A stretch of DNA of 16,327 nt from a virus. Taxonomy: Duplodnaviria > Heunggongvirae > Uroviricota > Caudoviricetes. A program made the translations under genes and the position numbers. Every line of letters starts with the position of its first letter. The first letter of the stretch is position 1. Below, piece after piece: positions 1,380-11,592 of the stretch. Below the pieces are notes generated by a model. It saw only the letters and a list, made by a program, of their open reading frames with translations. It did not search any database and had not been told where the DNA came from. The DNA lies in the IMG/VR virus record IMGVR_UViG_2645728010_000001; one strand, 5' to 3'.

Positions 1380-1432
1380 CGGCGGCAGAGCAGTCACGGA
1401 GTAAAACTGATACCGCCAAACGTCACCAGAAA
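1380..1432 (-). ncRNA. dicF: DicF sRNA (ftsZ-targeting antisense RNA) with 3' hairpin and U-tract
   Basis: Minus-strand sequence UUUCUGGUGACGUUUGGCGGUAUCAGUUUUACUCCGUGACUGCUCUGCCGCC followed by UUUUU matches recalled 53-nt DicF; position between ydfC-like gene and dicB. Ends approximate. Confidence 0.8.
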
Positions 1433-5141: not shown

Positions 5142-5345
5142 TGGCAATTTATTGTCTTGTTATTGTTCTTATGGATCACCTTTCTGATTGATTTCATATT
5201 GGAGAGGTAACGGTAGTTAAGTAGAATGGCTGCGGGTGCTTGAGGCTATCTGCCTCGGGCATGAACACCAACGGCAGATAGAGAAAAGCCCCAGTTAACA
5301 TTACGCGTCCTGCAAGACGCTTAACATTAATCTGAGGCCAATTTC

Positions 5346-5558
5346 ATGCTAGACACATGTAGGTTAGCCTCTTACGTGCCGAAAGGCAAGGAGAAGCAGG
5401 CTATGAAGCAGCAAAAGGCGATGTTAATCGCCCTGATCGTCATCTGTTTAACCGTCATAGTGACGGCACTGGTAACGAGGAAAGACCTCTGCGAGGTACG
5501 AATCCGAACCGGCCAGACGGAGGTCGCTGTCTTCACAGCTTACGAACCTGAGGAGTAA
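5346..5558 (+). CDS. mok: Mok-like in-frame upstream extension of hok (modulator of killing)
   Basis: 70-aa ORF in frame with hok from ATG 5346 (MLDTCRLASYVPKGKEKQA-MKQQ...), the same architecture as recalled MokC/HokC. Confidence 0.45.
   Translation: MLDTCRLASYVPKGKEKQAMKQQKAMLIALIVICLTVIVTALVTRKDLCEVRIRTGQTEVAVFTAYEPEE
5403..5558 (+). CDS. hokD: Hok/Gef-family type I toxin (HokD/RelF-like)
   Basis: 51 aa MKQQKAMLIALIVICLTVIVTALVTRKDLCEVRIRTGQTEVAVFTAYEPEE; AAGGAG RBS 7 nt upstream; single TM helix plus conserved C-terminal Hok segment. Confidence 0.85.
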   Translation: MKQQKAMLIALIVICLTVIVTALVTRKDLCEVRIRTGQTEVAVFTAYEPEE

Positions 5559-6372: not shown

Positions 6373-7023
6373 GTGCGGGTATTACTTCGACCTGTTCTGG
6401 TACCGGAACTTGGGCTGGTGGTCGTTAAGCCGGGCCGTGAATCCATGCCGGTATTCCACAATACCCGGGTATCCTGGTGGGCGGTCCGCAATCAGCTGGC
6501 GGACGCGCTACCGGAAGCGGTATTACGTCGCTCGCTGGGATTACCAGCGGAAAAAATCTGCTCGGTGTACCGCGAAAGCGACATCGTACCGGGAGAGCAG
6601 ACCGCCACCAGCATATTGAAACAGCGCACAAAAAATCTTGCACCGTTGCCTCACGCCCACCAGCAACAAAACCCATCACAGGAAAAGACGGTGGTAAGCA
6701 TCACCGTTGATCCAGAGTCTCCGGAATCTTTCATGAAGCTGCCTAAACGTCACCGGTGGGTTAAGGAGAAATACACACGCTGGGTTAAGACACAGCCGTG
6801 TGCTTGCTGCGGTATGCCAGCCGACGATCCGCATCATCTGATTGGTCACGGGCAGGGCGGAATGGGAACCAAAGCACATGATCTCTTTGTTTTGCCTTTG
6901 TGCAGAAAGCATCACGACGAGTTGCATACGGATACCGTGGCATTTGAAGAGAAGTATGGCTCCCAACTGGAGCTGATTTTTCGATTTATCGATCGCGCGC
7001 TGGCAATTGGTGTGCTGGCCTAA
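6373..7023 (+). CDS. DUF968-type protein with C-terminal Cys/His (HNH-like) motif (ydfU-like)
   Basis: 216 aa; C-terminal CACCG...DPHH...H...CRKHHDELH cluster; immediately upstream of Q as ydfU is in Qin. Confidence 0.55.
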
Positions 7024-7040
7024 TTTTGTGGAGTAAGTTG

Positions 7041-7418
7041 ATGCGTGATATTCAGATGGTTCTTGAGCGTTGGGGGGCATGGGCGGCTAATAATCATGAA
7101 GATGTGACCTGGTCGTCCATTGCCGCCGGTTTTAAGGGATTAATTCCTTCAAAAGTAAGATCTCGTCCGCAATGCTGTGACGATGACGCGATGATCATTT
7201 GTGAATGTATGGCTCGCCTGAAAAAAAACAACAGCGATTTACATGATTTATTGGTGGACTATTATGTCGGCGGCATGACTTTTATGGCGCTTGCACGTAA
7301 GCATGGGCGATCTGATTGTTGGGTTGGCAGGATGCTCCAGAAAGCTGAGGGCGTAGTGGAGGGCATGCTGATGGTGTTGGATCTCCGATTGGAGATGGAT
7401 GCTGATTGTTCGAAATAA
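7041..7418 (+). CDS. late-gene antiterminator Q (short, QuuD/phage-82-like type)
   Basis: 125 aa from ATG 7041 with GGAG RBS ([24 protein letters not shown]...); cysteine-rich centre; followed by promoter-like region and intrinsic terminator as PR'/tR'. Confidence 0.8.
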
Positions 7419-7516
7419 TTAAAGGAAAAGTTGCTGTCTGATTTTCATTAGTCTAACATTTTAAATGTTGGAATCGCAACGTAGTTATTATCATATAACA
7501 GCTTATTTCCTGATTT

Positions 7517-7547
7517 AGCCAGCCTCCCCAAAGGCTGGTTTTTTTCT
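7517..7547 (+). terminator. intrinsic terminator downstream of Q (tR'-like)
   Basis: ccagcct-ccccaa-aggctgg stem-loop followed by an 8-T run; oriented for the plus strand. Confidence 0.65.
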
Positions 7548-7573
7548 AATAAGTATCATTTCGGGTGGGGATT

Positions 7574-8098
7574 TTATTGTTTAACCCATAATAGTTCATT
7601 GACATTGAATCCCAACTTTTGAGCGGTACGCACATAGTCTGCTTTTACATTATCTGGAATAGTTTGGGTCCTTGCCAGAATCCATAGGTATTCTCTGTTC
7701 GGACCACTGACAAGAGCATACTTATACTCATCATCCAGTTTGATTACATTATAGCCACCATAGAAGGGGCCAAAAAACGAAACTTTCAACGCTGCAGTTT
7801 TAGTATCTCCAGTAAAGTATGCTTTACCTTCGCTCTCGCTCCATTTGTTTTTCGTTGGATCGTATCCACGGTTAAGTACGCGAATCCCTCCGTCGTTCCG
7901 TTTTTCATAAGTAGCGCTGACCTGTTCCAGACCACGTTCGAACCAGTTCTCGAGGCGAGCTATTTCATACCATTTTCCGAGGTAGCGGTTGGCGTCAAAA
8001 TTTGTAATCGGCTGCACACCTTTAGGTGGTGTCGGAGCCTTACATGCTATAAGAGTGAAAGAGAGTGCAATGCCAGTCAACACAGGCCATAACTTCAT
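7574..8098 (-). CDS. outer-membrane lipocalin lipoprotein, Blc family (diverged)
   Basis: 174 aa; signal peptide with lipobox LIAC; lipocalin motifs NFDANRYLGKWYEIARLENWFERGLE, FGPFYGGYNVI, YLWILART; AGGA RBS. Confidence 0.85.
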   Translation of the reverse strand: MKLWPVLTGIALSFTLIACKAPTPPKGVQPITNFDANRYLGKWYEIARLENWFERGLEQVSATYEKRNDGGIRVLNRGYDPTKNKWSESEGKAYFTGDTKTAALKVSFFGPFYGGYNVIKLDDEYKYALVSGPNREYLWILARTQTIPDNVKADYVRTAQKLGFNVNELLWVKQ

Positions 8099-8290
8099 AA
8101 TAAATCCTGTACTTTTGATAGTTGAGAGTAAGTATGAAAGATAGATGAGTACGACCGATCACTTAAAGAACTTTCCTACTATATTAGGAATAGTCAATAA
8201 CAGAAAAATTGTCAGTGATGAAGCCAGAAAGGCAATTTAGTCCGTGCACTACAAAGTTTATGTGTTAATGAATTAGTCAAGGGGGAGGAA

Positions 8291-8440
8291 ATGATAAAAA
8301 AACCTGTGATTGGGATCAGCGGTTGTTTGGGCGGTTCTGCTGTTCGTTTTGATGGTGGTCACAAAAGAGATGACTTTTTAATGGACAAATTAGTGGAATG
8401 GGTAACATTCAGACCAGTATGTCCGGAAATGGCTATATGA
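8291..8440 (+). pseudogene. 5' fragment of a DUF523-type gene truncated by IS3
   Basis: Strong RBS GGGGGAGG; MIKKPVIGISGCLGGSAVRFDGGHK resembles DUF523 N-termini; ORF stops in a TGA supplied by the IS3 terminal repeat; 49 aa where about 150 is expected. Confidence 0.45.
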
Positions 8441-8467
8441 TCCTACCCACGTAATATGGACACAGGC

Positions 8468-9334
8468 CTAAGCGAGGTTCTGGTTTTCAAATTGTTCCGG
8501 ACTGAGGCCGCCACACCAACTGTGCCGCCGCCACCGATTGTAATCACATTCGATATAATTAAACACCGTTGCCCGCATTATTTCCCGGCTGATAAAGTGT
8601 TCTCCATGGATACATTCCACTTTCAGCGAATGAAAGAAGCTTTCCACGCAGGCATTATCGTAGCAGCAACCTTTTGCGCTCATACTTCCACGCAGATTAT
8701 GCCGCTTCAGTTGCGCCTGATAATCTGCTGAACAGTACTGGCCTCCACGGTCCGTGTGAACGATAACGTTCCGGGGCCTCTTACGCCGCCACAGCGCCAT
8801 CTGCAGGGCATCGCAGGCCAGTTGCGCCGTCATGCGTGGCGACATTGACCAGCCAATAACGGCACGTGACCACAGGTCAATGACCACTGCCAGATACAGC
8901 CAGCCTTCATCTGTACGTAAGTACGTGATGTCTCCTGCCCACTTCTGGTTCGGGCCACTGGCGTAAAAATCCTGCTCCAACAGATTTTCTGACACAGGCA
9001 GGCCGTGTGCGCGGTAGCTGACCGGGCTGAACTTCCGGGAGGCCTTTGCCCTCAGTCCCTGACGGCGCAGGCTTGCCGCCACGGTTTTTACGTTAAAGGG
9101 GTAACCCTGAGCACGCAGTTCATCCGTCAGGCGTGGGGCACCGTAACGCTGTTTTGACCGGGTAAAAGCCGCGAGGACAACGCTGTCGCAGTGTTGGCGG
9201 AACTGCTGACGCGTGCTTATCCTTGTCCGCCGCTGACACCACGTATACCAGCCGCTGCGGGCCACCCGGAGCACGCGGCACATTGCTTTGATGCTGAACT
9301 CAGCCTGATGTTTTTCAATAAAGACATACTTCAT
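8468..9334 (-). CDS. insF: IS3 transposase OrfB (DDE integrase-like)
   Basis: 288 aa; matches recalled IS3 OrfB; overlaps orfA in ATGA arrangement. Confidence 0.9.
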
Positions 9335-9630
9335 TTCAGGCGCTTCGCGAAGTATGTCGCGGCCTTTTGGAGGATAGCCAGCTCTTCATCCCGTTCTGCC
9401 AGCTGGCGTTTGAGACGTGCAATCTCGGTAGACATCTCCAGTTCACGTTCAGAAGACGTCTGCTGATTTTGCTGTTTACTGCGCCAGTTGTAGAGTTGTG
9501 ATTCATACAGGCTGAGTTCACGGGCTGCGGCAGTAACACCGATGCGTTCAGCAAGCTTCAGGGCTTCACTGCGAAATTCAGGCGAATGCTGTTTACGGGG
9601 TTTTTTACTGGTTGATACTGTTTTTGTCAT
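9331..9630 (-). CDS. insE: IS3 transposase OrfA (HTH)
   Basis: 99 aa from ATG ([31 protein letters not shown]...); the ORF track's longer start is an upstream GTG. Confidence 0.9.
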
Positions 9631-9663
9631 GTGAGTCACCTCTGACTGAGAGTTTACTCACTT

Positions 9664-11592
9664 AACAGCGCACAGGCGGCAGCGGCCTCGCAGACTGCAT
9701 CGGCAAACTCCGCGACAGCAGCTAAAAAATCAGAAAACAACGCGAAAAATAGCGAGACAGCAGCAAAGACGAGCGAAACCAACGCAAAGTCCAGCCAGGC
9801 GGCAGCGAAAACAAGCGAAACGAATGCCAAAACCAGTGAAACTGCGGCGAAAAGCAGTCAGGCTGCAGCAGCCGAAAGCGAGAGTGCGGCAGCCGGTTCT
9901 GCGACTTCAGCAGCTGGATCAGCAACTGCTGCAGCTAACAGCCAGAAAGCAGCGAAGACGAGCGAAACTAACGCAAAGTCCAGCCAGACGGCAGCGAAGA
10001 CCAGCGAAACGAATGCCAAAGCCAGCGAAACTGCGGCGAAAAACAGTCAGGATGCAGCGGCCCAAAGCGAGAGTGCCGCAGCTGGTTCTGCAAGTGCGGC
10101 GGCTTCTTCTGCCACTGCATCAGCCAACAGTCAAAAAGCTGCAAAAACCAGTGAAACCAACGCAAAGGCGAGCGAGACTGCGGCGGCTAACTCGGCGAAA
10201 GCATCCGCTGCAAGCCAGACGGCTGCAAAAGCAAGTGAAGACGCAGCCAGAGAGTATGCAAGCCAGGCTGCGGAGCCGTATAAACAAGTTTTGCAGCCGC
10301 TTCCCGATGTGTGGATACCGTTTAACGATTCACTGGATATGCTTGCTGGCTTTTCGCCTGGTTATAAGCAAATAACTGTAGGTGATGATGTTATTAAAAT
10401 GCCATCCGATAAGGTTGTTAGCTTCAAACGCGCATCAGGTGCAACATACATTAATAAATCAGGAGTATTAACCGTTGCTGAAGTTGACGAACCGCGATTT
10501 GAACGAGAAGGTTTGCTGATTGAAGGACAAAGAACCAACTATCATCTTAATTCACTTACGCCATCTAAGTGGGGAGCTACAACAAGTGTAACTATAACAG
10601 AAAGTGGTGTTGATGAGTTTGGCTTTACTTATGGGCGGTTTCAAATAAAGGACGAAAAAATTGGGACAAATACGACAATGAATATCGCTGCGGTTTCAGG
10701 AGGAAGAGGTGTCGATGTTACTGGAACTGAAAAGTATGTTACAACATCATGTCGTGTAAAAAGCGATAGTGCTAATATACAATGTCGTATAAGATTTGAA
10801 AGATATGACGGGTCCGCATATTTTTATCTGGCAGATGCATATCTTAATATAACAGATATGTCCATTAGGAAAACGGGAGGAGGGGCTGCAAGAATAACCG
10901 CCCGAGCGGAGAAAGAATCTAATGGATGGATTTATTTCGAGGTTACATATCAATCTGAAGCTATTGATAATATGGTTGGCTCTCAGATCCAAATTGCTCC
11001 ACCTGTTTCACCTGGAACTTATTTGGGCGGGGAATATTTGGATGTTACGACACCACAATTTGAAGGCGGCTCATGCGCATCATCTTTTATCATTTCCGAT
11101 ACAGTTGCATCAACGCGAGCAAGCGATATTGTTACATTGCCTTGTAAAAATAACATGGCCAGCAAACCTTTAACCTGCATGGTTGAAGTGAATAAAAATT
11201 GGTCTATAGCACCAAATTCCGCGCCTAGAATTTATGATATAACAGGATTTAAAACAAAAGACGACGCTTTTGTTTTTGCATTCAGAAATACAGCAGGTAG
11301 TGTAGGAACTCCATATGTTCAATTTGGTAATCCAATATCATTTCCACCTGGAAATTACCCAAGAAAGATTATCGCTGTATATAGAATAAAAAGCGATGGC
11401 AAGTTTCAGGCTGGCTGCAATGGGGTTTTATCAACACCAGCATCAACAACGTGGAAGAGTGTTAGTGGTGCTACAGGTATAAGGATTGGAGGCCAGACTA
11501 CAGCCGGCTTACGTCATTTATTTGGTTATATCAGGAATTTTAGAATATGGCATAAAGAATTAACCGATGCGCAAATGGGAGAGATAATATAA
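9664..11592 (+). pseudogene. side tail fibre gene stf, 5'-truncated at the IS3 junction
   Basis: Open frame without start codon begins at the IS3 boundary; N-part is repetitive (KTSETNAKASETAAK-type repeats), then EPYKQVLQPLPDVWIPFNDSLDM junction and a low-GC C-terminal domain ending GLRHLFGYIRNFRIWHKELTDAQMGEII. Confidence 0.8.
9766..10200 (+). repeat. tandem 189-bp (63-codon) repeats with 45-bp sub-repeats inside stf
   Basis: Near-identical units starting about 9766, 9955 and 10144; boundaries approximate. Confidence 0.6.

Follow-up and report, generated by a model that had tools for sequence, protein, structure and literature searches.

The window analysed here, a 16,327-nucleotide stretch of DNA, is a Qin-like defective prophage of E. 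coli B/BL21 that carries an intact gene for a Blc-family lipocalin on the strand opposite to late transcription. We think it likely that the product is a working lipid-binding envelope lipoprotein of a second Blc lineage, here called Blc2, whose gene was captured by a lambdoid phage, probably together with the tRNA 4-thiouridine desulfidase gene rudS, and is carried as cargo that is expressed in the lysogen and benefits the host. Phage-borne blc as such has already been described. The gene is annotated as 'lipocalin family protein' in RefSeq and 'Lipocalin Blc' in phage records, it belongs to PHROG 2809, which carries the annotation 'unknown function', and, of the 19 infant-gut lambda phages studied by Mathieu et al. 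(2020; PMC6969025), more than 50% have blc, a bacterial lipocalin, listed as a moron. Any novelty attached to the gene by an earlier reading of the sequence alone (hereafter the sequence-only reading) therefore falls away and, as a discovery, an annotated and widespread gene that is already listed as a frequent lambda moron carries little weight. What we add is the second Blc lineage, the probable co-capture of rudS and evidence of selection on the lipocalin.

The open reading frame runs from an ATG start to a TAA stop, is intact and occupies exactly positions 7574-8098 of the minus strand (Table 1). Its product matches Pfam PF08212 (Lipocalin_2) over residues 35-174 (E = 7.5e-43; 146.4 bits against a cutoff of 24), NCBIfam PRK10477, 'outer membrane lipoprotein Blc', over residues 1-174 (312.6 bits against a curated cutoff of 267) and the solved chains of E. 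coli Blc over residues 20-174 (approximately 60% identity, E = 8e-67), and it is identical (100%) to ECD_RS08030 of BL21(DE3). The lipocalin motif G-x-W-Y-E-I/V-A at the start of strand A is present as G41-K-W43-Y44-E45-I-A47, as is the conserved arginine near the end of the barrel (R143), and G41, W43, Y44, E45, A47 and R143 are invariant across 42 aligned homologues. An AlphaFold model computed from the 42-sequence alignment recovers the lipocalin fold, and the Blc structures 1qwd, 3mbt and 2aco are its first PDB matches, followed by plant TIL and ApoD. Since this model is of moderate confidence (mean pLDDT 65), the fold assignment is carried by the sequence match to solved Blc. On these grounds the gene encodes a Blc-family lipocalin with a predicted eight-stranded beta-barrel (calycin) fold. 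The sequence-only reading had called a complete Blc-type lipocalin with a lipoprotein signal at this position, and both parts of that call hold, given the Pfam, NCBIfam and PDB matches and the LIAC lipobox described below.

Table 1. Features of the blc locus, with positions in the window, strand and basis of assignment.
Feature	Position	Strand	Basis or detail
Antiterminator Q gene, 125 aa as annotated (ORF from TTG at 7026)	7041..7418	+	Pfam Phage_antitermQ, E 8e-51; RefSeq WP_001204787.1
Intrinsic terminator, tR'-like, 9-bp stem and U7 run	7517..7546	+	Terminator scan; fold
blc2-type lipocalin lipoprotein gene, 174 aa	7574..8098	-	ORF, Pfam, NCBIfam, PDB; RefSeq WP_000780584.1 'lipocalin family protein'
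Signal peptide with lipobox L-I-A-C	8042..8098	-	Codons 16-19 at 8042-8053, Cys19 at 8042-8044; read from sequence
Divergent blc/rudS intergenic region	8099..8290		Aligned with six phage alleles and six chromosomal Blc2 loci
Shine-Dalgarno AGGA of blc	8105-8108	-	6 nt before ATG
-10-like CATACT(TAC), candidate for blc	8131-8136	-	Alignment
AATATA/TATATT block	8180-8185		In blc/rudS intergenic region
rudS remnant, first 49 codons (TudS/DUF523 + DUF1722, tRNA 4-thiouridine desulfidase)	8291..8437	+	RefSeq pseudogene '2-thiouracil desulfurase family protein'
IS3 copy cutting rudS	8438..9665	-	Pfam rve/HTH_Tnp_1; RefSeq 'IS3-like element IS3 family transposase'; junction analysis

The N-terminus of the lipocalin reads MKLWPVLTGIALSFTLIAC and is followed by Lys, which places the lipobox at L16-I17-A18-C19; L16, A18 and C19 are invariant among the 42 homologues. 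According to the '+2 Asp' rule of lipoprotein sorting, an aspartate directly after the cysteine is a signal to avoid Lol, and lysine carries no such signal. Residue +2 of the phage lipocalin is Lys and not Asp, and by this rule the protein is predicted to be sorted to the outer membrane. Upstream of the gene, the element CATACTTAC of the E. coli B prophage aligns with a conserved CTACACTTAA of the chromosomal Blc2 loci approximately 35 nt before the ATG, and the 1H12 allele has AATACTTAC in its place. The chromosomal CTACACTTAA resembles an RpoS-type (sigma-S-like) -10. As a consensus scan found no sigma-70-type site above threshold upstream of blc, it is the alignment that places the promoter, and we regard the -10-like element as a suggestive candidate for a promoter belonging to blc itself.

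Across 7420-8460, identity to BL21(DE3), REL606 and further B derivatives is 100% and, in the annotated BL21 chromosome, the prophage is flanked by rspB on one side and by ydfJ/ydfI on the other. The lipocalin gene lies 155 bp downstream of the antiterminator gene Q, on the opposite strand. Between the two genes, approximately 100 nt past Q, lies an intrinsic terminator that is canonical on the plus strand only and whose fold (-14.9 kcal/mol, z = -3.5) was matched in stability by none of 200 shuffled sequences. By analogy with lambda pR'-tR', this terminator may be the tR'-type target of Q antitermination and, with Q and the terminator both on the plus strand, late transcription would cross blc in antisense. 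The earlier description of the gene as phage cargo placed after Q and against late transcription is thus upheld, with Q ending at 7418 on the plus strand and blc on the minus strand. Divergent from blc stands the remnant of rudS. We located the left junction of the IS3 copy that cuts this gene by comparison with an intact rudS allele, homology to which ends at approximately 8437-8439, and an inverted-repeat search at the IS3 ends returned no match. The far end of IS3 is truncated near 9665, where it abuts a tail-fibre gene deleted at its 5' end, and the window lacks the lysis genes, the head genes and most of the tail genes.

In intact relatives the layout is Q, blc on the minus strand, a 319-aa rudS (DUF523 + DUF1722), a 243-aa AraC/YdeO-like regulator gene and then holin, endolysin and Rz. 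This arrangement is found in phages 1H12 and IdasGreatGrand and in all four E. coli chromosomes sampled, in which the surrounding backbones differ (DLP12-like, lambda-like and Qin-like). The slot between Q and lysis to which the sequence-only reading assigned the gene accordingly exists in these relatives; in the window itself no lysis cassette follows, owing to the IS3 copy at 8438 and the deletion of the lysis and head genes. Among the described counterparts is the infant-gut lambda moron, represented by gp65 of phage 1H12 ('Lipocalin Blc'), which is the same gene with 95-97% protein identity and the same layout, and from which the E. coli B prophage differs in being defective, in having rudS cut by IS3 and in having lost its lysis and head genes.

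The gene is common. Of 5426 complete E. coli genomes, 1135 contain its coding sequence; coverage reaches at least 80% in 1042 of these, and identity is nearly always at least 95%. Deposited records of lambdoid phages contribute 12 further occurrences, and IMG/VR viral contigs at least 166. The best 80 of these 166 or more contigs all have the 174-aa frame intact, with just seven protein alleles in total, Q adjoins blc in 79 and the whole four-gene module is present in 58; the AraC-like gene is broken in 12 and rudS in two of the same 80. With a RefSeq annotation, presence in roughly one E. coli genome in five and publication as common lambda cargo, the gene has to be regarded as ordinary. As morons do, blc stands between functional modules of a phage genome, and viable phages carry it. 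It is also of bacterial origin and its composition is unlike that of its surroundings, with a GC content of 43.6% against 47% for Q and 49-59% across the 1.2 kb before Q. Our literature search found no experimental or functional study of a phage lipocalin beyond the listing of Mathieu et al. (2020), and no reported phenotype for phage Blc.

The sequence-only reading had also proposed that the gene is diverged from the chromosomal blc of E. coli and was horizontally acquired, and both proposals are supported. The phage lipocalin shares 59% identity with the core Blc of the same strain, which is encoded in the order frd-ampC-blc-sugE, and 73-80% with Blc of Enterobacter, Leclercia, Buttiauxella, Huaxiibacter, Raoultella and Cedecea. 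By synteny, Blc proteins fall into two lineages, one linked to frd/ampC/sugE/ecnB (in E. coli, Salmonella, Citrobacter and others) and the other, Blc2, without this linkage; both are present in Buttiauxella izardii. A neighbour-joining tree unites the phage alleles with 100% bootstrap support and nests them within the Blc2 clade with 96% support, apart from the E. coli lineage. On this phylogeny, phage blc is a horizontal acquisition from the Blc2 lineage of other Enterobacterales, and its derivation as a drifted copy of E. coli Blc was ruled out, the gene being a second paralogue of a lineage absent from the E. coli core genome. E. coli Blc (PDB 1QWD, 2ACO and 3MBT) and the phage protein are nonetheless alike in family, length and type of lipobox and align without a gap over 174 residues; they differ in paralogous lineage and in location, the frd-ampC-sugE locus as opposed to a prophage, and BL21 has both copies.

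We examined 12 chromosomal loci, defined as those with a blc 73-80% identical to that of the phage. In 11 of these 12 loci, blc2 and a string of genes whose last member is rudS are divergent; at the remaining one, in Cedecea, the regulator is present and no rudS was found within 5 kb. The string between blc2 and rudS consists of an mlrA-like MerR regulator gene and/or a transthyretin-like (HIUase) gene, and the chromosomal rudS genes are 71-74% identical to that of the phage. Chromosomal Blc2 proteins are the closest relatives of the phage lipocalin, and their -10-like block lies equally far from the start codon; the difference is that blc and rudS are directly adjacent in the phage, with neither the regulator nor the transthyretin-like gene between them. 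Because the phage carries both genes and blc2 adjoins the rudS string at most of the chromosomal loci, we infer from synteny that blc and rudS were probably captured together from one chromosomal locus, with loss of the intervening regulator. The two phage genes are also alike in their atypical composition (GC 43-44%, GC3 37-41%). The closest chromosomal orthologues have a GC3 of 57-76% as against 41% in phage blc and synonymous sites are saturated, which indicates that the true donor lineage is unsampled. Enterobacter was ruled out as the direct donor for the same reasons, its GC3 being off by 16-35 points with synonymous sites saturated. Of the second gene, the intact 319-aa version from phage 1H12 (gp66, 'RudS_vir') has been expressed and is active on tRNA s4U (Jamontas et al., 2024; PMC11417400). 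The same study reports that E. coli is without RudS and that RudS genes lie in light-responsive operons controlled by MerR/LitR regulators (PMC11417400).

Blc is expressed under stress and in stationary phase and binds lysophospholipid (lyso-PE) with nanomolar affinity, and haem/porphyrin has been proposed as a ligand in addition to lysophospholipid (PMC8177097). We compared the ligand pocket, defined as the 19 positions that PMC8177097 lists as lying 4 A or less from the ligand in E. coli Blc, between the two proteins and found 18 of 19 residues identical in the phage lipocalin, the nineteenth being K77R, against an identity of 57% outside the pocket (hypergeometric P = 8e-4). Selection is evident among the phage alleles themselves, between which dN/dS is approximately 0.1-0.2 and ranges from 0.06 to 0.29; the two main allele groups are separated by up to 21 synonymous and 5-7 non-synonymous differences. 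In the decayed E. coli B prophage, blc has stayed intact despite the loss of rudS and of the genes for lysis and head. Purifying selection thus maintains the gene even in a decaying prophage, which argues for some benefit to the host. The E. coli B allele, which occurs in 34 of the best 80 of at least 166 viral contigs, carries the substitutions R52W, G65E and P145Q. Arg52 is nearly invariant and lies beside the pocket residue Phe53, and R52W could weaken lipocalin function in the E. coli B strain.

Taken together, the sequence and comparative data are consistent with the following course of events. A lambdoid phage would have taken up the gene, probably with rudS, from an Enterobacter-like stress locus into the cargo site that the Q/pR'-tR' region and the lysis genes flank. 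In the lysogen, blc would be transcribed from its own promoter, and after induction it would be opposed by Q-dependent late transcription. Such expression, antisense to the late operon, suggests that the gene serves the host cell (lysogenic conversion) and not virion production. Export of the precursor would be followed by lipidation at Cys19 and cleavage after Ala18, and, given the Lys rather than Asp that follows the cysteine, Lol would deliver the lipoprotein to the outer membrane, on its periplasmic face. There its beta-barrel cup, with a pocket essentially as in E. coli Blc, may bind lysophospholipids, fatty acids or similar amphiphiles and so contribute to envelope lipid housekeeping in stationary phase or under stress.

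We weighed three other explanations against this one. The gene might be a neutral passenger that does nothing in the lysogen and owes its persistence to linkage with a recombining block around Q and the late promoter. The block of Q, blc, rudS and the AraC-like gene does move as a unit across backbones, the adjacent cargo genes are often broken, R52W in the E. coli B allele changes a nearly invariant residue and the scan for promoters found none at its threshold, all of which would suit a passenger. We nevertheless consider this explanation unlikely, since a gene without function would not be expected to combine dN/dS values of 0.06-0.29, a reading frame intact in all of the best 80 of at least 166 viral contigs and in a heavily deleted E. 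coli B prophage, and a ligand pocket conserved at 18 of 19 positions.

A second explanation grants the lipocalin a function but ties it to that of its neighbour. According to this proposal, Blc2 and RudS form a coupled module against near-UV and photo-oxidative damage, in which RudS erases the UV-sensitive s4U of tRNA and Blc2 clears damaged (oxidised or lyso-) lipids from the outer membrane, and lambdoid phages brought the pair from an Enterobacter-type light-responsive locus to E. coli, which is without either gene. The divergent linkage of blc2 to the rudS string in 11 of 12 chromosomal loci and the immediate adjacency of the two genes in the phage fit such coupling, as do the light-responsive MerR/LitR operons in which RudS is found, its absence from E. 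coli and the activity of phage RudS (1H12 gp66) on tRNA s4U (PMC11417400). Linkage is not function, however; the MerR-type regulator that would couple the genes is lost from the phage, blc persists without rudS in the window and in other contigs, and no Blc is known to be connected with light or with lipid peroxidation. We therefore hold a coupled module to be decidedly improbable.

Least probable of all, with only a slim chance of being correct, is superinfection exclusion or receptor masking, the role suggested by the sequence-only reading. The lipoprotein would then bind, from within the periplasm, a receptor of the outer membrane and so stop competing phages from adsorbing or their DNA from entering. 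The gene does encode a predicted outer-membrane lipoprotein in a prophage and is positioned for expression in the lysogen, envelope cargo is frequent in such phages (Bor/Iss; membrane proteins among lambda morons, PMC6969025) and another temperate phage (Morganella phage IME1369_01) took up a lipocalin independently, but scans of the lipocalin, RudS and the AraC-like protein gave no match to a PADLOC model (E <= 0.01), the protein retains 73-80% identity to chromosomal housekeeping orthologues with 68 invariant columns in common, a Blc pocket kept at 18 of 19 positions gives no sign of a new binding surface, capture probably brought in the gene together with an unrelated stress gene, rudS, that shared its chromosomal locus, and our literature search found no paper tying lipocalins to exclusion. 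The role suggested earlier is thus unsupported, and the pocket, the linkage to the host stress gene rudS and the PADLOC result together point to retention of ordinary Blc function rather than to a new anti-phage role.

Phage lipoproteins that do act on receptors offer a comparison. Llp of T5 and Cor of phi80 and N15 are small phage-encoded outer-membrane lipoproteins without a lipocalin fold that inactivate FhuA; phage Blc, by contrast, shows no similarity to defence models and keeps its lipid-binding pocket. Parallels in position are offered by Bor/Iss of lambda, NmpC of DLP12 and Lom, which are outer-membrane cargo in late-region slots expressed in the lysogen but have unrelated folds and functions. 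NmpC is a porin whose gene stands after Q on the opposite strand, and Bor/Iss confers serum resistance; Bor/Iss is found in the same prophages as blc. The predominance of membrane proteins among lambda morons was noted by Mathieu et al. (2020; PMC6969025).

As the phage lipocalin is a second paralogue, approximately 21% of E. coli strains, BL21 included, carry two Blc proteins. The second copy is relevant to studies of Blc function, to blc knock-outs in B strains and to Blc-derived fluorogen-binding tools. A strain-variable 'Blc' protein has been recorded by proteomics in STEC (PMC9731836), and this might be the prophage copy. Lipocalin cargo also extends to Morganella phage IME1369_01, in which a Blc 50% identical to the one described here is encoded between the lysis and terminase genes.

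The lipocalin gene of the window has rudS, which codes for a tRNA 4-thiouridine desulfidase, as its divergent neighbour. The intact rudS product of phage 1H12 is the RudS_vir protein assayed in PMC11417400, and the same study notes that RudS is absent from the E. coli chromosome; the enzyme is therefore supplied to this species by prophages of this type. In E. coli B, rudS has been destroyed by IS3. The far end of this insertion lacks about 30 bp of its terminal repeat and abuts a 5'-truncated tail-fibre gene. This structure indicates a deletion adjacent to IS3, in which the AraC-like gene was lost together with the lysis and head genes and most of the tail genes.

The third cargo gene, retained in relatives with the intact module (phage IdasGreatGrand and the chromosomal prophages L086-L089 have equivalents of the 1H12 copy), encodes a regulator whose nearest matches are YdeO/GadX (NCBIfam E 2e-32, below the cutoff). 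Its GC content is very low at 31%, and it is split or frameshifted in several prophages. Prophages of EHEC carry AraC-like regulators of acid resistance or the T3SS (PatE/Psr), of which this gene may be a counterpart.

Features of the window and of related loci (L002, phage 1H12; L171, Morganella phage IME1369_01)
Feature	Location	Strand	Remarks
DicF sRNA	window 1380-1431	-	Rfam, 72.5 bits
sok antitoxin RNA	window 5234-5408	+	Rfam, 115 bits; overlaps hokD leader
DUF968 (ydfU-like) gene	window 6469-7023	+	immediately upstream of Q; N-terminally truncated in BL21 annotation
Lipocalin codon 52	window 7943-7945	-	Trp in E. coli B allele
rudS remnant (TudS/DUF523 + DUF1722)	window 8291-8437	+	divergent from blc
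IS3 copy	window 8438-9665	-	one end intact (8438), within rudS
Tandem repeat, 189 bp	window 9751-10185	+	2.3 copies, 83% matches
rudS, intact	L002:6873-7832		gp66
AraC-family regulator, 243 aa	L002:8151-8882	+	third cargo gene of intact module
Blc-like lipoprotein gene	L171:4001-4516	late strand	50% identity

The lipocalin itself is a distinct allele in E. coli B. Its Trp52 adjoins the pocket residue Phe53; at least 90% of 42 homologues have Arg here, as does the other main allele of the phages. G65E and P145Q are likewise peculiar to this allele, which is common, being found in 34 of the 80 best viral contigs among at least 166.

On bacterial chromosomes, blc2 has a conserved neighbourhood in Enterobacter, Leclercia, Buttiauxella, Huaxiibacter and Raoultella (loci L005 and L007-L016), where genes for an mlrA-like MerR regulator and a transthyretin/HIUase-like protein, together with rudS, run divergently from it; the regulator or the transthyretin gene is missing in some species. 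The Cedecea locus (L004) departs from this pattern: after the regulator come SnoaL, SDR, amine oxidase and DUF1365 genes and a cyclopropane-fatty-acid-synthase-like gene.

The Blc-like lipoprotein of Morganella phage IME1369_01 is a second, independent phage-borne case. Its gene is flanked by the lysis genes on one side and the gene for the small terminase subunit on the other, in a cargo slot and a temperate phage that both differ from those of the lambdoid blc. Separately, a metagenome-assembled genome labelled 'Candidatus Nanosynbacter' includes a 2.1-kb contig (JARKOR010000135.1) with Q-blc-rudS at 97% identity; this contig is almost certainly part of an E. coli prophage that was assigned to the wrong bin.

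Elsewhere in the window, sok and DicF are RNAs that we would expect of a Qin-type prophage. A full-length DUF968 gene (349 aa) is present in the close relative L089. The 189-bp tandem repeat, which contains nested periods of 42 and 21 bp, lies within the 5' portion of the truncated gene for the tail fibre ('head spike fiber domain') and gives rise to numerous overlapping spurious ORFs on both strands.
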